A stretch of 64,000 nt of DNA from positions 288,001 to 352,000 of the forward strand of contig CAVUWV010000001.1 in NCBI GenBank assembly GCA_963745075.1, given 5' to 3'. The stretch comes from Candidatus Hydrogenedentota bacterium (GTDB lineage Bacteria; Hydrogenedentota; Hydrogenedentia; Hydrogenedentales; SLHB01). The notes under the pieces were generated by a model. That model saw only the letters and a program-made list of their open reading frames with translations, was not told the origin of the DNA and searched no databases. The translations under genes were made by a program, and so were the position numbers. Shown here piece by piece: positions 25,860-55,845 of this stretch (positions are counted from its first letter, which is position 1; every line of letters starts with the position of its first letter).

Positions 25860-26108
25860 GGAACGGGAGCGGCCGGGGAGGCCAAGGCGCCAACCCAGAC
25901 CCTCCCCGGTCGAAACAGCTCAAAAGAGTACCAGTTGTTGGGGGATTCTGATATTCATCGAGGGCACTTCCTGTCGCGACAATCACGACCCCATGTGGAT
26001 CGCTACCCAGTTCGAAATTCTTGCTTTAGGCTCGTTGACAAACTCGGCAATCGGCATGACACCTTCGTGCAATTGGACCGGGTTCCGGCTCCATCGTCCG
26101 GCCCGCCA

Positions 26109-26160
26109 CGAAATGGTGCAATTCATGCTCCGGCAGTTTAAGATGGGCAATGCGGAATAG
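26109..26160 (+). repeat. Right copy of the 31-bp repeat, continuing as an orphan alternative hydrolase C-terminus (EMVQFMLRQFKMGNAE*)
   Basis: Matches the hydrolase end EMVKFMLRQFGMIDSG* in frame and has the same distance to the stop codon. Confidence 0.8.
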
Positions 26161-26187
26161 TACGGACTGCGTAATTAAGGAGGGGAT

Positions 26188-26928
26188 ATGCGTATTCAAG
26201 TGCACATGCTTTTGATGATGGGGGGCATGGTGACGGCGGCGGTGGTAATGGCGGCGCCCGCGCACGCGGAAGACCCGGGGCCGGTCAAATGTCTCATGAT
26301 GGGGATGGGCCCTCACGGCGAAGTCACGATGACCGACGTGTTGGCGGACATTAAAGCCAACTATCCGACGGTGGAGATCACCGCGACGGAAAACGTGGAC
26401 GATCTCAAGATCGAGAATCTCAAGAATTATGACGTATTGCTCATGGTCCAGATGAAGGTGGACAACAACCCGCCGGATTTCGTGAAAGAGTCGATCCCGC
26501 AGTTCTTGAAAGACGGCGGCGGTCTCGTCGTGACGCACTTCGCCGTGGCGAATGTGCAGGAGTGGCGGGACTCCATCGACATCTTCGGCGCGATGTGGGT
26601 GAACGGCAAATCGACCCACCTCCCGTATCACGAGTTCAGCGTCGATATAACGAACGAGGCCCATCCGATCCTGGAAGGCGTCAAGCCCTTTACGACGAAC
26701 GACGAACTCTATTTCAATCTCCTCATGCGCCCGGACATGAACGTGATCATGACGGCCGACGAGGAACGCTTCGGACACACGGTCGCCGAGCCCATGCTCG
26801 CGACGCACTACGTGGAAAACGCGCGCTGCGTGTATTTCGCTCTCGGCCATGACGTGAAGTCGTGCGAACCGCCCCAGTACCGGCAAATCCTCGTGCAGTC
26901 CATCGAATGGGCCGCGTGCCGCCGGTAG
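26188..26928 (+). CDS. Exported ThuA-like (class I glutamine amidotransferase fold) protein
   Basis: Signal peptide; FLKDGGGLVVTH, HPILEGV..F...DELY and YFALGHD. Confidence 0.85.
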   Translation: MRIQVHMLLMMGGMVTAAVVMAAPAHAEDPGPVKCLMMGMGPHGEVTMTDVLADIKANYPTVEITATENVDDLKIENLKNYDVLLMVQMKVDNNPPDFVKESIPQFLKDGGGLVVTHFAVANVQEWRDSIDIFGAMWVNGKSTHLPYHEFSVDITNEAHPILEGVKPFTTNDELYFNLLMRPDMNVIMTADEERFGHTVAEPMLATHYVENARCVYFALGHDVKSCEPPQYRQILVQSIEWAACRR

Positions 26929-26952
26929 ATTTCGACATATTGTTGGCATTGG

Positions 26953-27822
26953 TTGCGGCGGCGTCCGATTCTATTCGACAGGACGCCGCCGGTTTTTGAA
27001 ATGAGGGAACCGTCACGCGCGCGAGTGCGTCTCGATGTTTTTGAAGGCTGCTGCGAGGGATTTATCAAGTTGCTTGGCACGTTGGCACAAATCGCTATCG
27101 TTTCCGCGAGTCTTTGGCTTCTTATGTCGCACGGGTTGCCGGTTGAACCGGCCGCATTCGCTCCCACCCCCGAACTCGCGTATGCGTTGCAAACTCCCTT
27201 CGCCTCGGAGACGAAGGCAGAAAGCGCGGATCAGCTGAAACAACTCGGCATTGTGTTGAGGATGTTCGCGAACGAGAGTCGCGGTGAGGTGTTTCCGTCG
27301 CTCGATTCGCGCCCGGGAAACCTGATGATGCGGGCCTCGGAAATCTTTCCCGAGTATGTCGTGGACACGTCCGTTTTCGTGTCTCCTGCCTATCCGGACG
27401 CTGCCAGGCTCAAGGAACAAGCCGCGCAGAAACCGCTATCGCTAATCGACGACCGCAGCTATTGGTACCTTGGCTATGCGATACTCAATGAAGATCGGGG
27501 TCTTTCCTTCATTGAAGGCTATCGGAAAGCAGTCGAGGAAGAGGGCGTTCCCACGGATGATCTCAAGGCGTCCGGCGGCGCGATATACCGCCTTCGGGAA
27601 GGCGTCGAACGGATTCTCATTTCAGACATCAACAATCCGGACGCGGCGGCGCAAGTCCGCTCCCGGATCCCCGTTATGATCGAGCGTCCGGAACTCGAAG
27701 GCGGCGGTTCCAATGTGCTGTTTCTCGACGGACGCGTCGTGTTCATGAAGTATCCCGGACCGTTCCCCATGACGAAGAAGTTTATCGAGGCGCTGAAGTC
27801 ACTGGATGAATTGAAGCCGTGA
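26953..27822 (+). CDS. DUF1559/H-X9-DG-CTERM-like protein (start uncertain)
   Basis: QLKQLGIVLRMFANES.G..FP, IYRLREGVERILI.DINNP and GGSNVLFLDGRV.F..YP. Confidence 0.7.
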   Translation: MRRRPILFDRTPPVFEMREPSRARVRLDVFEGCCEGFIKLLGTLAQIAIVSASLWLLMSHGLPVEPAAFAPTPELAYALQTPFASETKAESADQLKQLGIVLRMFANESRGEVFPSLDSRPGNLMMRASEIFPEYVVDTSVFVSPAYPDAARLKEQAAQKPLSLIDDRSYWYLGYAILNEDRGLSFIEGYRKAVEEEGVPTDDLKASGGAIYRLREGVERILISDINNPDAAAQVRSRIPVMIERPELEGGGSNVLFLDGRVVFMKYPGPFPMTKKFIEALKSLDELKP

Positions 27823-28709
27823 AATCTGCAAGTGCAGTGCTTTTCAACAGGAGAGCCACCGTGTTGACGACGATCCTGATCACGATGTTGTCCGTTCAAT
27901 CCGGCGCAGAACCGACCACCGAAGAACCTCCCGCACAGCCGATCCGGCTCGCGCTCATGCACGGCGTGCCGGTGAAGTGGGACGTGGACGCCAACTTCAA
28001 GGTTTTTCTTGGCTGTCTGGAGCAAGCCTCGTCCGATCGCGCCGACATCTTCATCACGCCGGAGTGCTGGCTGGACGGCTACGCTGCGCCGGACAAGACA
28101 TCCACCCCGGAGAAGCTGCGGACCATCGCCCAGGACATGGACGCCAGCCCCTTCATCCAGCGCGTCGCGAAAGAGGCCAAAGATCGTTCCATGATGATCT
28201 GCTTCGGATTCACCTCGCTGGAGGACGGCAAGATTTACAACACGTCCGGTCTTTGGGATGCCGAAGGCAACCGGATCGGCGTGTATCACAAGACCCATTT
28301 ACAGGCCCACGATCTGCAATTCAGTTTCGGACAGAGCATCCCGGTTTGGCCGTCGAAATACGGACCCCTCGGCATGATGATCTGCGCCGACCGCCGCTGG
28401 CCCGAAACGGTCCGCACCCTGCGCCTCGAAGGGGCGAAACTCATCCTAAACCCCACCTATGGCTTCCACGGCGACATGAACACGGCCATCATGCGGACCC
28501 GGTCTTTCGAGAACCAATGCTTCATCGCGTTCACCCACCCGGAAGAAAGCCTCGTAACGGGACCCAAAGGCCAGATTCTCGCCCAGTGGACGGGCTCCGA
28601 CCCCGGGGTCCTCGTCTGTGAAATCGACTTGTCCCTGGCCAAAGACGACAACCACCTCCACGACCGCCGCCCCGAACTCTACGGCATCATCACGCAACAA
28701 GGGAAGTGA
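27819..28709 (+). CDS. Carbon-nitrogen hydrolase (nitrilase family)
   Basis: Triad motifs TPEC, YHKTHL and ICADRRWPE; C-terminal DRRPELY. Confidence 0.9.
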   Translation: MKSASAVLFNRRATVLTTILITMLSVQSGAEPTTEEPPAQPIRLALMHGVPVKWDVDANFKVFLGCLEQASSDRADIFITPECWLDGYAAPDKTSTPEKLRTIAQDMDASPFIQRVAKEAKDRSMMICFGFTSLEDGKIYNTSGLWDAEGNRIGVYHKTHLQAHDLQFSFGQSIPVWPSKYGPLGMMICADRRWPETVRTLRLEGAKLILNPTYGFHGDMNTAIMRTRSFENQCFIAFTHPEESLVTGPKGQILAQWTGSDPGVLVCEIDLSLAKDDNHLHDRRPELYGIITQQGK

Positions 28710-28754
28710 AGCCTAACCAGACTTGCAGAAAGTGCGAAAGGGTTCGAACTGGGG

Positions 28755-28773
28755 CACGGGCGTCTCGCCCGTG
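28755..28773. repeat. REP-like palindrome gcacgggcgtctcgcccgtg
   Basis: Short GC-rich hairpin cacgggcg/cgcccgtg downstream of the nitrilase gene. Confidence 0.55.
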
Positions 28774-28866
28774 TTCTTCATTTGAGAAACCCGCAATGTG
28801 CGATCGGAGAGTGACAGAACCCGAAGGAGTCGCAACAGAAAGCTCAGTTCCCGATCGTGAACTGTG

Positions 28867-28920
28867 GTCCATATCGTCCATACTGTCCATATCGTCCATA
28901 AGGTCCATAAGGTCCATAAG
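28867..28920. repeat. Nonamer tandem repeat (GTCCATANN)x6
   Basis: gtccatatc gtccatact gtccatatc gtccataag gtccataag gtccataag; related tracts near 56339-56372 and 57243-57275. Confidence 0.85.
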
Positions 28921-29210
28921 AACCTTCCGACCCTGCACAAATCTGGCAGCCTCAACCGTGGGTAGGGAAAGACGAACGGGGCAGCGGACGCATCGCGGAG
29001 GGGCATGAGCAAGGACCACGCAGAACTACTGCGGCGATTCTATGAGTCCAACCGCGCCGAACGGGTAGCCGATCCCGCGCGTCAATGTCAGGCAGATCAC
29101 AGGTGGAGGCACCTGTGCAACACGGCAAACTGAACTTGTATGATTCCTGGATTATCGATCCGAATTTCTGACAATTCCAAAAGATGCTGATTGGAAAACC
29201 GGATACTCAA

Positions 29211-30038
29211 TGCTGACCCGAAACGTGTGGCACAGCCGCCCCCGGCTGTGGTCTTTCAAAAATCCCCGGGCATCCGCCTCGGATACTCGCTCAACTCCAG
29301 CAATGCATACAGCAACAGCCCAACCCCGTCCGTCGACTCGTAGTACGGTTTGACGACACCTATCCCGCACAACAGACGGAACGTTCCGTTCAAATCGCTG
29401 GCAATTCCGAATGCGTCAATTGTAAGACCCAAAACTTAGTGCTGACCCGAAACGTGTGGCACAGCCGCCCCCGGCTGTGGTCTTTCAAAAATCCCCCGGC
29501 ATCCGCTTCGGATACTCGCTCAACTCCAGCAATGCATACAGCAACAGCCCAACCCCGTCCGTCGATTCGTAGTACGGTTTGACGACACCTATCCCGCACA
29601 ACAGACGGAACGTTCCGTTCAAATCGCTGGCAATTCCGAATGCGTCAATTGTAAGACCCAAAACTTAGTGCTGACCCGAAACGTGTGGCACAGCCGCCCC
29701 CGGCTGTGGTCTTTCAAAAATCCCCGGGCATCCGCCTCGGATACTCGCTCAACTCCAGCAACGCATACAGCAACAGCCCAACCCCGTCCGTCGATTCGTA
29801 GTACGGTTTGACGACACCTATCCCGCACAACAGACGGAACGTTCCGTTCAAATCGCTGGCAATTCCGAATGCGTCAATTGTAAGACCCAAAACTTAGTGC
29901 TGACCCGAAACGTGTGGCACAGCCGCCCCCGGCTGTGGTCTTTCAAAAATCCCCGGGCATCCGCTTCGGGTACTCGCTCAACTCCAGCAATGCATACAGC
30001 AACAACCCAACCCCATCCGTCGACTCGTAATACGGCTT
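29211..30038. repeat. 229-bp tandem array: 96-bp copies of the neighbouring gene's 3' end alternating with an invariant 133-bp REP-containing segment
   Basis: Unit starts at 29211, 29440, 29669 and 29898. Gene-end copies lie at 29256-29351, 29485-29580 and 29714-29809; the live gene end is 29943-30038. Confidence 0.95.
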
Positions 30039-31450
30039 CGCCGGATGCCCCTTGAACCAGCCGTTCACGTACAACTTGTCGATGGCCTCATCCGCCAGAT
30101 CGATCGCCGTCTCCAAATCAGCCGGGTCCCCCGTCGCGTAATGCAAGTGCAGAAAAAACGAGATCGCCCGGCCGTAATTCTCCGCGTACGTGCCGCCCGT
30201 TTGTTCCGCTTCCGGCAGACATTCCAACAGTTCCTTCTTCCAGCGACGCCCGATCTGCGGCGGGAGGCTCTCGCGGATGTTCTCCGCCCAGTGCCGGGCG
30301 CTCTCCAATGCGTCCGGATCGCCGGTCAGTTCATACGCGTAGATCGACGTCTGCGCCGCGATCATCGGGAATTCATACGAAAACATCACCGTGCGCCAGA
30401 TGTCGATGTAGCCAACCGGCTTCCACAAGTCGTAATGATCGTCCATCTGCTGGTCCATCACCGGCGTCCCGTCGAGCGCCAGCATCGCCCGCCACTGATG
30501 CGCGTCCCCGTCCCAGCCGTATTTCAAGTAGGCCTTGATGTAGGCGAGAGCCACGTCTTGAAACCAGGGGTCGCCCGTCAACTCATACGCCCGCAACAAC
30601 GCCGCCGCATGGGGTCCCGTGATCGTCGTGAAGCAATGGTTCGCGTCGTACCGGTCGCCCGTGCTCGGTGCGTCGGGCGCCAGATTGGTTTCCGGATTGC
30701 GCGCGTTCCAGTGCCGGCCCGCCACGATCTTGCCCACGACAGATACTTCGGATCGCCTGTCTTGCCGTACATGAACGCGAAGGCCTGCAACATAGGATCC
30801 GCCCGCGAACGCAAAATCGCACCCCACGCTCTTGTCATCGTGGCGATTGAACAGGCCCGTCTCCTTGTCCACCACGTGCCATTCCCAGATCCCCTCGACC
30901 TCTTGGCGGAACAGGTCCGGCGTCACGCGCCACATCCGCTCCCATTCCGGCAGGAGCACCAGAATCTCGTGAGGACCCTTGCCGTCCTGGTCACCCCCGG
31001 GCGCGTCCGTGTACGCGTCGTAGAAGATATGCGAACCCCAGGCCAACATGCCGTTCTCTTTTCGCGAACGCTCGAAGAAGACGCGGACGTAGTCGTCACA
31101 GGCCTGCCGCGTACCGGTCGTCGCCCGGTGAGGTCGCTCAGCGCGTAAAGCGTCCGCAGCAAGGGCTGGTCTTCCCAAAGGTCGCTTCCCGCAGGATTTC
31201 GCCGATGCTGGCGCTCCTCACACCGGATATATCCGTCGAGGGGAAGTGGTTCCCGGGGCGATTCGCCCGTGCTCACGTCGATAATGCTCATGAAAAGCGG
31301 CGTGGAAAGGTCCCCATAATGATCGCGGCCGTATTCCAGCATATGGTCCGCCTGCGACTGGACGCAGGCTCGATACGTACCGGCCTTGTCCGCAGGGACC
31401 TGGCCCAAGACCGAAGCCCAGAGCAGTGCGGCGGCGACAGCGACGCGCAT
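29943..31450 (-). CDS. Secreted (alpha/alpha)-toroid protein resembling family-2 periplasmic pectate lyases; frameshifted as given
   Basis: GGAGG RBS and signal peptide at 31450; DQPLLRTLYALSDLTG and GMLAWGSHIFYD resemble PL2 motifs; reading-frame breaks near 31120 and 30730-30785. Confidence 0.6.
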
Positions 31451-31776
31451 GGACGGAACTCCTCCCCGCAATTGGTGTTAAGTGTATTAGACCACACTCC
31501 AATCTTGTGATACCACGACTGCGCATACCGAAACGTTGTGGAAAGTAACAATCCTGGGGTAATTGACCGAATATGCGAGAACTTCCGAATGTAGAGAATG
31601 CTGTCAAACAAATGGCAGCTTTCGCCGTTCTATGCAGAAGCGTCAAACTTACAGGATCTTTAGCGATTCTCAACGCCGGTCCGTGACATAGATCGCAATA
31701 TAAGGGAAATTATAGATATTAGTTCTGGACAATCCCAGGCTCTTCTGATATGCTATCAGTAGAAAGGGTGTCAAAA

Positions 31777-32205
31777 ATGCCAAAGTACGATGTGAATGTA
31801 GCATGGGATGATCCGTTCGACCATCTGGCCAATCGACGCGAGTCGGAGCGGTTCGATTTCCGGATCAAAATGTCTATTGCCGTCGAGCAAGCGGGAACGC
31901 GTTCGAGGCTGGTGGGGCCCGGAATCGTGCGCAATATTTCTCTGTCCGGCGCCAGCTTGGTGACCAAGCACGCGCTTGCGCCACGCCAGCGTATCACACT
32001 CGCGATTCCCACGAAGCGGTTCAAAGTGGCCGAATGTCTACCCGCGTATTTTATGGGTACCGCCGACGTCATACGCGTCGAGCCGCGTGATGACTCCACG
32101 ATTCGTGCCGCGATCCGGTTCGGCGATTCCTTCACCCAGAACATGGATTTCTCGGTGTTTATCCGTGAGCTGTACGCCGTGCGGCATACCCTCGCCGTCG
32201 ACTGA
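31777..32205 (+). CDS. Stand-alone PilZ domain protein
   Basis: c-di-GMP motifs RRESER (RxxxR) and NISLSG (D/NxSxxG). Confidence 0.85.
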   Translation: MPKYDVNVAWDDPFDHLANRRESERFDFRIKMSIAVEQAGTRSRLVGPGIVRNISLSGASLVTKHALAPRQRITLAIPTKRFKVAECLPAYFMGTADVIRVEPRDDSTIRAAIRFGDSFTQNMDFSVFIRELYAVRHTLAVD

Positions 32206-32228
32206 CGAGAAGCCCTAGCAAACCTTGG

Positions 32229-32267
32229 ACCGCGTATCGAAGTATCTTCGATGCGTGGTTTTCTTTT
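32229..32267 (+). terminator. Rho-independent terminator after the PilZ gene
   Basis: 14-bp stem accgcgtatcgaag/cttcgatgcgtggt (two G-U pairs) followed by tttctttt. Confidence 0.75.
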
Positions 32268-32581
32268 GTGCCGGCGCGCTTACACCCTGCCACAACACTC
32301 TCGAATACGATTACGAGTCGTCATGAAAGGCCTTTCACCGAGAAATGATGTAAATAGGACCTTCTTCTCCAACGGCCCGTGCGCGGATGGAAACAAAGTA
32401 GGATGAATGATTCCCGTCCTACAAGATCGTCTCGACTCGCTGCATTCGACTCCCGGGCACCGGATTCGGCATAATCCTGCCTTATTTGCGCAGCACTCGA
32501 TTTGCGCGTGGTGCATTTCCCCCTTGCGCCGCGGTCTCATCACCGCTGCATCTCCCTCGAAGCCAACACAGGAGGAATCCC

Positions 32582-33925
32582 GTGGAAGGAAGACTGAATC
32601 ACGACCAACGAATCTGGCGCTGGAAGATCCTGTTCTCCACCTACATCGCGTACGGCGGATACTACCTCACACGCAAAGTCTTCACCATCTGCAAGACATC
32701 CATTGCGGGCGATTTCGGCTGGCAATTGGAAAGCACCGCCCACATCTGGGCGGCGTTCCTCCTCGCGTACATGATTGGCCAGTTCATCAACAGCTTTATC
32801 GGGCGCAAGTGGGGCCCGCGCGTGCTGCTGCTGGGGGGGCTGGGGATATCCATCTGTATTAACGTCGTTTTCGGTTTCGCCAATTCGTTCGCCACCTTCC
32901 TGGTCTTCATGTTCTTTAACGGACTCGTTCAGGCCAGTGGGTGGCCCGGGGTCGTGGGAGGTATCTCCCATTGGCTGCGCAACAAAGAGCGCGGAACGAT
33001 CATGGGGTTCTGGTCGACGAACTACGTCGTCGGGAACATGGTCGTGAAATCGGCCGGCGCCATGCTGCTCGCGGCCTACGGCTGGCGCTACGCCTTCTGG
33101 GGAATGACACTTCTTACCGTCGGCGTATGGCTGGTCATATACTTCTGGCAAAGAAACAAGCCGGAAGACGTTGGCCTGGACCCGATCGTGGAAAAACGCG
33201 AGGAAGACGGCCGCGCCGTGCGCGCCTCGGAAGAAGAGCACATCAGCACCGCGCACTACTTCCAATTGGCGTTTCACCCGGTGGTCTTGACCATGGGGGT
33301 TAGTTATTTCTGCATCAAGTTTCTGCGGTATGCCTTGGACTCCTGGCTGCCCGCATTTCTGAACATTCAAGGACTCGACGTGGGCCGCGCCGGCTTGTAT
33401 TCGTCAATCTTCGACTGGACCGGCCTTGGCGGCGCTATCGTCGCCGGCTGGGCGCTGGATCGCATCTTTCGCGGCAACTGGGCGATGCTCTGTTTCACCA
33501 TGAGTCTCGGGATGATCTTTGGGTACATGGCCGTCATCTATGTCGGGTCTAACCCGGTGTTGATCGCCCTCTGCTTCGGGATTGTCGGGTTCATGATTTA
33601 CGGGCCTGACACCATCCTTTGTGGGGCGGCATCGGTGACCGTGGCCGGCGAGGCGAACGGCGTCGCGGTCGCGGGACTGGTCAACGGGATAGCCAGCTTT
33701 GGTCCCGTGATCCAGGAGGAAGTCATTGGATGGCTGGTCAGCGGCGATCAGATGGCGGGCATTCGCAACACCAACCGCCTGGCCCTCGGAATGAGCGTTG
33801 CCTTTTCGCTATTGATGATCGTAATGATGTGGCGGCTGCATATCACGCACAAAGGCCATCGCGAGCGTGACGAGTTGGCCCAACTCAAGTCCGAAGTCGC
33901 GGAGGCAAATGAGGGTGAGCAGTAA
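32582..33925 (+). CDS. MFS transporter, organophosphate:Pi antiporter (GlpT/UhpT) family; probable 2-aminoethylphosphonate importer
   Basis: [30 protein letters not shown] and [15 protein letters not shown] after AGGAGG; overlaps the phnW start. Confidence 0.88.
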
Positions 33926-35065
33926 CATCCCCAATTGGAAAGACAAGATCCTCTTCACCCCCGGCCCATTGACCACCAGCCGGACGGTGAAACAGGCCAT
34001 GCTGCGCGACCTGGGTTCGCGGGACTTCGCGTTTATCGAATTGGTCAAAGATATCGCGACGCCGGTTGGTCGCGTTAGGCGAATGTACGGACGGGACCTA
34101 CGAAGCGGTCCTGATGCAGGGAAGCGGCACGTTCTCAATCGAGGCGGTGTTGTCCTCCGCAGTCGCGCCGGACGGGAAAGTCCTGGTCATCGTCAACGGC
34201 GCGTACGGGAAGCGCATGATCCAGATGCTCAAGACCTTGAAGATCGACCACGCCGTGCTGGAATGTTCCGAAGACGAGACGCCCGATGTGCGATGCGGTC
34301 GATAAGGCGTTGAAAAACGATCCCTCCATTTCGTTTGTCGCCGTGGTGCATTGCGAGACCACGACGGGCATCATCAATCCCATCCGCGAAATCGGGGGAC
34401 TCGCGCAACGCCGCCGGTGCCACCTATTTCGTCGATGCCATGAGCAGTTTCGGCGCCGTCCCGCTCAACGTTGCCGAGTCAATATCGACTACCTGGTTTC
34501 GTCCGCGAACAAGTGCATCGAAGGGGTCCCCGGATTCGGGTTCGTGCTCGCGCGGCGGGAAACGCTGCGCGCAACCGAGGGGTTCGCACGCAGTCTCAGC
34601 CTGGACCTTCTGTCCCAATGGCGCGGACTGGAAGGCAACGGCCAGTTCCGGTTCACGCCGCCGACCCACGCGCTGCTGGCCTTCCATCAGGCCCTTCTCG
34701 AGTTGGAGGCGGAGGGTGGAGTCGCTGGCCGCGCGGACCGCTACCGCACCAACTACGATGCGCTGCTCCACGGCATGCGCGAAATGGGCTTCGACGAATA
34801 CCTGGCGCCAGAGCGCCAAGGATACATCATCACCTCGTTCCGCTACCCGTCGCATTCGAATTTCACCTTCGACGAATTCTACGCGCGGCTCAATGACAAG
34901 GGCTACGTGATCTATCCCGGCAAAGTCAGCAACGCCGATTGCTTCCGCATCGGAAACATCGGAAGAATCTTCGAACAGGACGTCCGCGATTTGCTCCGGG
35001 CAATTCGCGAGACGTTGTCAGAAATGGGTATCGAACTGCAAGCGCAATACACGAGTGTGCACTGA
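33909..35065 (+). CDS. phnW: 2-aminoethylphosphonate-pyruvate transaminase, with several frameshifts as given
   Basis: Pieces in three frames: [61 protein letters not shown] and IYPGK. Confidence 0.88.
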
Positions 35066-54846: not shown

Positions 54847-55492
54847 GCCCCGAAGGGGCTTTAACATGACAGCCTAGGGCAACGCCCTGGGATCCGAATC
54901 GTCTCTCTTTGTAAGCCCTGAAAGGGCGAAACAGGAGCAATCAGATGGCGCAATCCCTGTCAATGAACCTACTCCATCTCATCTACAGCACCAAAAACCG
55001 CGAAGCCTGCCTCACCGACGAAATCCGCCCAAAACTCTTCGCATACCAATCGGGTATTCTCAAAGAATTGGACAGCGCCGCTATCGTTATTGGTGGCACA
55101 GAAGACCATCTTCATGCGCTGTTCACGTTGTCGAAGACCCGCGCCTTGTGCGATGTCGTCGAGGAGGTGAAAAAGGGATCGTCCAAATGGCTCAAAACCC
55201 AGGGCTCGGAATTCGCCGGCTTCCATTGGCAAAACGGCTATGGTGCATTCTCCTTGAGCGAGTCTCACGTGGCCAAGGCCCGCCGTTACATTGAAAGGCA
55301 AGAAGAACACCACCGCACGCTGACGTTCCAGGAAGGATTCCGTTTGTTTCTGAAACGGTATCGCATTGAATATGACGAACGTTACGTCTGGGACTGACGC
55401 CCTGTCCTGCCCTTTCAGGGCGATCACCATGGGGGTGCCGTTATCCCAGGGCGTTGCCCTGGGCTGCCATGACTTGGCCCTTCGGGCCTGAA
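54847..55492 (+). mobile_element. IS200-family/REP-associated HUH transposase flanked by inverted composite REPs
   Basis: Inverted REP copies at 54847-54927 and 55409-55492 bracket the tnpA gene; no tnpB. Confidence 0.8.
54945..55397 (+). CDS. tnpA: IS200/IS605-family Y1 transposase
   Basis: HLIYSTKNR, HUH motif DHLH, WQNGYGAFS and catalytic Tyr in RYIERQEEHH. Confidence 0.93.
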   Translation: MAQSLSMNLLHLIYSTKNREACLTDEIRPKLFAYQSGILKELDSAAIVIGGTEDHLHALFTLSKTRALCDVVEEVKKGSSKWLKTQGSEFAGFHWQNGYGAFSLSESHVAKARRYIERQEEHHRTLTFQEGFRLFLKRYRIEYDERYVWD

Positions 55493-55845
55493 AGGCCCCA
55501 AACATGATAGCCCGGGACTCATATGACTTGGCCTTTGGGCCTGCGAAAAGGCCCCAAACATGATAGCCCGGGGCTCATATGACTTGGCCTTTCGGGCCTG
55601 AAAGGCCCTAAACATGATAGCCCGGGGCTCATTATGACTTGGCCTTTCGGGCCTGAAAGGCCCCAAACATGATAGCCCGGGGCTCATATGACTTGGCCTT
55701 TCGGGCCTGAAAGGCCCCAAACATGATAGCCCGGGACTCATATGACTTGGCCTTTCGGGCCTGAAAGGCCCCAAACATGATAGCCCGGGGCTCATATGAC
55801 TTGGCCTTTCGGGCCTGAAAGGCCCCAAACATGATAGCCCGGGGC
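55469..55845. repeat. Tandem array of seven ~54-bp palindrome-containing units
   Basis: Unit atgacttggcctttcgggcctgaaaggccccaaacatgatagcccggggctcat starts at 55469, 55523, 55579, 55634, 55688, 55742 and 55796. Confidence 0.95.

Follow-up and report, generated by a model that had tools for sequence, protein, structure and literature searches.

A REP-linked tandem array of probably allelic gene 3' ends behind a PL2-like gene of a Hydrogenedentota bacterium

The closest described systems are the REP sequences and the transposases associated with them, and the background of the RAYT/REP family is given in PMC6006769. For TnpA-REP/RAYT, the excision of circles, local rolling-circle-like amplification, and the capture of flanking genes or gene fragments have been proposed (PMC3333891, PMC2817692), and how BIME recombination mediated by TnpA-REP proceeds in cells, and how often, is stated to be unknown (PMC3333891). 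With another RAYT, cleavage in vitro occurred at CC as directed by a GTGG guide (PMC8266576). Literature searches found no paper on REP in the lineage studied here and none describing REP clusters that contain arrays of allelic gene ends, the searched literature being thin in subscription papers. Supplementary Figure S7 of PMC3333891 may contain comparable captures, which bears on the novelty of the present locus.

The window, which is the whole stretch of 64,000 nucleotides that was analysed, carries an array of this kind behind a PL2-like gene. Tandem Repeats Finder delimits the tandem array to 29211-30035, with a period of 229, 3.6 copies, 97% matches, and 0 indels. On the minus strand, the last 32 codons of the PL2-like gene are followed by three further copies, termed c1, c2, and c3, and the three 133-nt non-coding segments show zero differences. 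An earlier note on this DNA had reported three extra gene ends at 229-bp spacing and identical 133-bp non-coding parts, and both observations are borne out. The array has no open reading frame of 80 amino acids, with 133 non-coding bases between the gene ends. The features of the locus, in window coordinates, are listed below.

27819..28709, plus strand, convergent carbon-nitrogen hydrolase gene (context)
29098..29121, minus strand, inverted second REP arm, degenerate, an older variant also present in congener G005
29122..29226, minus strand, linker Y, 105 nt, the resident linker
29227..29250, plus strand, fourth REP arm; read on the minus strand, it forms the left arm of the terminal doublet
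29256..29351, minus strand, gene-end copy c3; 6 differences from the gene
29352..29455, minus strand, linker X, third copy
29456..29479, plus strand, third REP arm
29485..29580, minus strand, gene-end copy c2; 7 differences from the gene
29581..29684, minus strand, linker X, second copy
29685..29708, plus strand, second REP arm
29714..29809, minus strand, gene-end copy c1; 8 differences from the gene, junction site counted
29810..29913, minus strand, linker X, first copy; a REP-doublet linker, the same in all three units
29914..29937, plus strand, REP arm, first of four identical (GTGG guide and 8-bp hairpin)
29943..30038, minus strand, the gene's own last 31 codons and stop
29943..31471, minus strand, PL2-like gene, Pfam Pectate_lyase_2 (PF06917, E 4e-22), start approximate

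The hairpin of the array is a REP, with a GTGG tetranucleotide at its 5' foot and an 8-bp stem. The genome that harbors the array (G000) contains 40 REP arms, among which the variant of the array is the commonest (19/40), and 12 inverted REP doublets were found in it, 10 of them with linkers of 97-106 nt. Among five congeners, exact matches to the REP pattern number 136 in G001 and 208 in G002, with none in G003-G005. The cognate RAYT gene (G000:C30:60270-61235) is a Y1 transposase gene placed between two doublets of the GTGG REP, an arrangement that constitutes a REPtron; it scores over the cut-off for PF01797 and reaches 93.3 bits for NF047646 against a cut-off of 80. Homologues that are 66-67% identical occur in G001 and G002, the two congeners with the REP pattern, and the G000 query gave no match in G003, G004, or G005. 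The REP arms, the doublets, and the RAYT gene elsewhere in the genome support the proposal that the repeated unit is REP-linked.

The array is closed after c3 by a terminal doublet (29098-29250) consisting of an arm, the 105-nt linker Y, and an inverted degenerate arm; this is a pair of inverted REPs at a conserved distance, as in REPINs. The repeated unit contains a single arm, the inverted arm being present once, at the array end, and it is not the head-to-tail module of two inverted REPs by which BIMEs are recognized. The array behaves in a BIME-like manner but is a cluster of singleton arms. Folding of the 229-nt unit is no better than that of shuffled sequences (z -1.21), an Rfam search of 28500-32000 returned nothing below E 0.25 apart from one chance match at that value, and a promoter and terminator scan gave nothing above chance. 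A mini-protein encoded by each copy was considered on account of a 59-codon open frame through linker X, and was rejected, as the linker part is invariant and shows no sign of translation. As separate observations, a Y1 transposase gene (PF01797) at 54972-55845 of the window precedes 6.9 tandem copies of a palindromic 54-bp unit, which represents a second family of REP-like repeats, and the linker of a GTGG REP doublet at G000:C1:114298-114570 holds ∼5 tandem 32-bp units made of half the hairpin and the linker start.

The repeated non-coding part consists of the first arm and linker X. A doublet behind the same gene is found in G005, where it is orthologous, and in G002 with another linker, and none was seen there in G003 and G004. 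Linker Y is identical to the linker after the orthologous gene in G005 at 68/105 positions in an ungapped alignment. Comparison of these sequences points firmly to a locus that ancestrally ends in a REP doublet, composed of an arm, a linker of ∼105 nt, and an inverted arm. Linkers X and Y are 60% alike, with their first 16 nt identical, and X scores 69 against Y and 69 against the G005 linker, as compared with at most 49 against nine other linkers of the genome. This likeness is confined to the first 64 nt of X; the last 47 nt resemble neither Y nor the linker of G005 (scores -3 and 6), and hence the identification of X as a full linker of this locus rests on its length and end motif.

Linker X ends 100-111 nt from the arm, at one of two linker-end-like candidate places that are 11 nt apart. 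The outer candidate is a CCGT common to the gene, the end of Y, and the end of the G005 linker, and the other, 11 nt earlier, is a motif resembling the common linker end of the congeners. At either candidate, the unit stops where the second arm should start. The junction has 4 nt of microhomology. CC is present at both partners of the outer candidate, a dinucleotide common at 60% G+C, and the junction, as read from the sequence, may reflect cleavage after C and is equally compatible with slippage. A CT cleavage site as in the E. coli RAYT was dropped and is not retained at the junction.

The gene-derived segments differ at nine sites, which in gene coordinates are 30036, 30030, 30024, 30015, 30005, 29991, 29970, 29965, and 29955. 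All nine had been noticed previously as sites at which the gene and every copy differ from one another, but only four of them (30024, 29991, 29965, and 29955) vary among the copies, and the remaining five (30036, 30030, 30015, 30005, and 29970) separate the gene from all three copies, so that one foreign allele suffices for them. Located at the junction, site 30036 (K aag/aaa) may originate from the linker rather than from an allele; it was set aside, leaving 8 sites for the synonymy test. In post hoc tests, made on a locus chosen for its pattern, the probability of at least seven of these 8 sites being synonymous is 0.003 under the observed mix of transitions and transversions, and the four fixed gene-versus-copy sites are all synonymous (P 0.022). 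With the copies considered alone, and under the same post hoc reservation, all four sites fall in the coding part (P 0.03) and at least three of the four are synonymous (P 0.10), a signal that by itself is modest. The non-coding DNA comparable for the gene-versus-copy sites is 45 nt, not 133.

Both the gene and the copies carry changes relative to the congeners. Since changes lie on both lineages and the fixed differences are synonymous only, descent of the copies from a functional gene end, as had been proposed, is supported. At sites 30024 and 29965, each of the four possible two-site combinations occurs, suggesting either recombination among the copies or consensus mosaics.

Same-orientation arm pairs of G001 and G002 were surveyed at 18 loci (19 pairs, with two duplicate loci left out), drawn from 150 of 344 matches and from gap-limited searches, and hence not a random sample. 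Among the pairs examined, 16/19 enclose 96-110 nt; the extra linker matches its neighbour by 60% or less in 13/19 (two comparisons end at contig ends) and by 82-93% in 6/19; and in 12/19 the linker-end motif is followed by 4-13 nt. An arm with a full linker and a short flank, often with a foreign linker, is, as far as these alignments can tell, the usual extra module in the genus. The unit of the window differs from such modules in its ∼100 nt of coding flank; no long coding flank was found in the congener arm pairs, where the shared flank is at most 10 nt in 18/19. Directly repeated arms 165-225 nt apart are present in two of 133 genomes of the order, as the array described here and as a 120-bp array in G002. 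Searches for direct arm repeats in the five congeners, systematic from 105-nt gaps upward, yielded 10 at 105-165 nt, 0 at 225-285 nt, and two composite clusters at 285-345 nt. The G002 array (L083:1377-1764, contig G002:C313) has three copies of a 120-bp linker-plus-arm unit; over ∼30 nt its first linker is unlike those that follow, which recalls on a small scale the relation of linkers X and Y.

Displaced gene ends were also sought throughout the genome. The 15,204 open frames of 150 codons or more were scanned for 3' ends recurring within 1.5 kb, which gave 16 hits; four of these were inspected besides the array locus. At G000:C31:229284-230530 (minus strand; gene stop 230438), the last 93 nt of an argS-like gene, which we take to be argS from its C-terminal motif, recur 1154 bp downstream with 9 differences, of which 7 are synonymous (P 0.005). 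The distal copy is the displaced original, since it is followed by the neighbour seen in 4/4 congeners. The island between the two ends comprises 1061 nt of non-coding DNA, of which 78% consists of repeats that also occur at other places in the genome; no recombinase gene is evident in it. The repeats of this island belong to other families. Near position 327934 of contig C10 (G000, minus strand), the decayed last codons of a presumably clpP-like gene lie 843 bp downstream of it, with what we take to be a methyltransferase-like ORF between; this may be an older, third gene-end displacement.

Tandem arrays of other kinds are present in the same genome. At G000:C8:264473-265178, there are 9.4 copies of a 75-bp unit formed by the first part of the adjacent tRNA-Asn gene and a hairpin; the hairpin is confined to this array (9 copies), and beyond the array lies one more decayed tRNA fragment. 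Tandem duplications of 131-386 bp lie beside other palindromic repeats at C24:453365-453924, C36:281716-282266, C20:152558-152924, and C24:478397-479151 of G000, and the 386-bp pair among them has many small indels and may be an assembly artefact.

The best explanation of the array, with a probability of roughly 0.55, is a BIME-like amplification at a REP doublet that included the coding flank, in which a module from a second functional allele was amplified and recombined. The anatomy of the array and its two-allele signal are observed directly, and from them we infer three steps. In the first, a module consisting of gene end, arm, and X would have been cut from the same locus in another allele, at the 5' foot of the second arm and ∼100 nt inside the gene. 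The likeliest agent would be RAYT cleavage with joining as a single-strand circle, an alternative being template switching stalled by the hairpin. Recombination of the module into the resident locus would then produce the order gene, arm, X, spare end, arm, Y, arm. In the second step, the module would have been amplified locally and recently to three units, hence the identity of X in all of them. In the third, the four 141-nt homologous blocks would undergo unequal exchange and conversion with one another and with alleles of the gene present in the population, synonymous variants would thereby be shuffled into the spare ends, and X would have stayed constant because it had no close homologue for recombination. 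The spare copies are probably non-functional, and crossovers can swap copies into the gene; it is more likely that the copies are remnants still undergoing recombination than that they record captured alleles in order. In favour of the explanation are the synonymous excess (P 0.003), the displaced argS end, and the public run X1 described below, which has the identical unit and a new haplotype. Linkers X and Y differ by 40%, as linkers of different species do, in comparison with the 6-8 differences in 96 nt of the gene ends, so that fast linker turnover or later homogenisation is needed, and this counts against the explanation, as do the two junction candidates, the dissimilar last 47 nt of X, the short flanks of the congener triplets, the other repeat families at argS, the low depth of X1, and the indel errors of the assembly.

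It is possible, although less probable, that the array and the second allele are real and that the four among-copy sites are consensus or polishing mosaics derived from the reads of co-occurring strains. Such reads would match the 96-nt gene end of any copy and not linker X, and a constant linker with synonymous variants is exactly what would be predicted; the among-copy pattern is accounted for well. Residual indels in the assembly are in keeping with this alternative: 5 frameshifts were counted relative to G003 in 69 genes (90.7 kb), and the PL2-like gene has four single-base indels relative to three congeners at 30731-31123 of the window, which judging from the alignments are probably assembly errors. 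The indel errors suggest a long-read assembly, in which case the array was spanned by reads and the base-level consensus remained open to strain-variant mosaics. Also in keeping with it, site 29955 falls within a C/G homopolymer boundary, and the variants call for single-site patches, c3 having the gene's base at 30024 with copy-type bases 6 and 9 nt to either side. Separately from the array, an aminotransferase-like gene near ∼34300 is split over two frames, probably by an assembly error. Against the polishing alternative, the three 229-bp units contain 0 indels, and the argS pair, which has unique flanks, displays the same synonymous pattern.

Further evidence comes from X1, one public run that contains a small share of the window stretch; it consists of contigs at a depth of ∼3. 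Eleven contigs of X1 align to 26000-34000, eight of which are considered here. A contig over 29802-29939 matches in 138 nt with 0 differences, covering the arm, linker X, and a few gene-end bases, and this unit contig ends just before variable site 30030. A second contig, over 29910-30036 (127 nt), has two differences from the gene, one of them the copy-type base at 30005. Over the gene-end span of that contig, the window copies have 6-8 differences from the gene and all carry the copy-type base at 30030 and 30015; the X1 gene-end contig therefore matches none of the four ends. In X1, the unit and REP pieces reached assembly with high identity, whereas the single-copy DNA of the 8-kb stretch did not, a pattern consistent with a real multi-copy unit and further haplotypes. 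A further haplotype within one 31-mer span, together with a unit contig that stops exactly before 30030, argues against polishing as the source of the among-copy variants.

An in-place duplication by slippage at the REP hairpin, followed by neutral mutation and unequal crossover with no foreign allele involved, is unlikely. The 4-nt microhomology at the junction and the several other repeat-adjacent tandem arrays in the genome would be expected from such a process, and four mutations and one crossover explain the among-copy sites, for which P is only 0.03 and 0.10. However, X should then equal Y, and the two are 60% alike; moreover, the four fixed differences are all synonymous (P 0.022) and lie on both lineages relative to the congeners.

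The model of the earlier note, in which a constant REP unit integrated repeatedly, brought a different natural allele in each event, and left an ordered record, is quite unlikely. It finds agreement in the constancy of the non-coding part against a variable, mostly synonymous coding part, in the new haplotype beside an identical unit in X1, and in the single displacement at argS. Yet all copies, including c3, which in this model is the resident allele, share the base at the five sites that differ from the gene, no polymorphism is seen in the 133 non-coding bases expected to travel with each allele, and the four-gamete pattern indicates variants that recombine. One capture per copy is unlikely on these grounds, and the claim that each copy is its own captured allele is not supported. 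No integrase or att-like element was found near the array among the ORFs inspected. Among 40 related loci of this gene, a near-identical gene-end repeat was seen at 0/32 of those with at least 400 nt downstream, and five loci have a second protein-level match. In a search for alleles of the same species, the exact degenerate gene-end pattern had no match in metagenome contigs, from which records of the own genome were possibly excluded, and a protein scan gave 28 loci that are 50-72% identical. A CRISPR-like acquisition array was rejected, as what varies here is the end of a single host gene, present in near-identical copies that show a four-gamete pattern. Finally, that the array is nonexistent and the assembler stacked strain haplotypes of one gene end is hardly credible, even for an assembly with indel errors, because stacking cannot produce the junction of linker X with the gene, X1 assembles only unit and REP pieces at high identity as for a multi-copy unit, and equivalent arm-linker repeats exist in the congeners.

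A wider role for the preferred BIME-like amplification is conceivable but doubtful: RAYT-cut single-strand circles carrying arm, linker, and gene 3' end might move between strains and re-enter at the same gene, making REP doublets integrase-free devices for swapping and stockpiling allelic gene ends, here three times and possibly once at argS. Because the locus has a defined natural junction, a cognate RAYT known by name, and numerous counterparts with short flanks in G001 and G002, assays in vitro could address its cut sites directly. Should the spare ends indeed exchange with the gene, mosaic gene ends would to a small extent arise from REP activity; should the variation among the copies instead stem from consensus errors, what remains is an ordinary REP cluster that holds a single displaced allele.

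Comparison with the described systems places the locus closest to BIME amplification (Ton-Hoang et al., PMC3333891; Nunvar et al., PMC2817692), with which it has in common head-to-tail modules of REP and linker and a gene for a Y1 HUH transposase that lies between REPs of the same kind. Unlike these BIMEs, the module of the array has one arm rather than an inverted pair, its guide is GTGG, and what it has captured as flank is the 3' end of the neighbouring gene itself, from a different allele. The REPINs and tandem REPIN clusters of Pseudomonas fluorescens SBW25 (PMC3116915, PMC3337134) likewise pair inverted REPs across spacers that are conserved in length and variable in sequence, form tandem units in which flanking DNA is included, and have REPINs inserted into or next to REPINs; in contrast, the array repeats only one arm, and its flank is coding. 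Tandem REP clusters with flanking DNA also occur among the GTAG/GTRG REPs (Di Nocera et al., PMC3733652), although allelic, synonymous gene ends within the units are not described in the excerpted text. At icd/icdC of E. coli (PMC13626634), prophage e14 has left a spare 3' end downstream of the gene; it differs from the gene by synonymous and conservative changes, and recombination can return it to the gene. The array similarly has displaced, mostly synonymous ends downstream of an intact gene, but lacks the integrase and cargo between the ends; a 15-kb prophage separates them in e14, whereas the array has a 133-nt non-coding REP unit, no recombinase gene, and three spare ends. In view of the flank-capturing BIME amplification already published in PMC3333891, the locus is a genuine and for the most part explicable form of REP/BIME amplification whose cargo is an allelic gene end.
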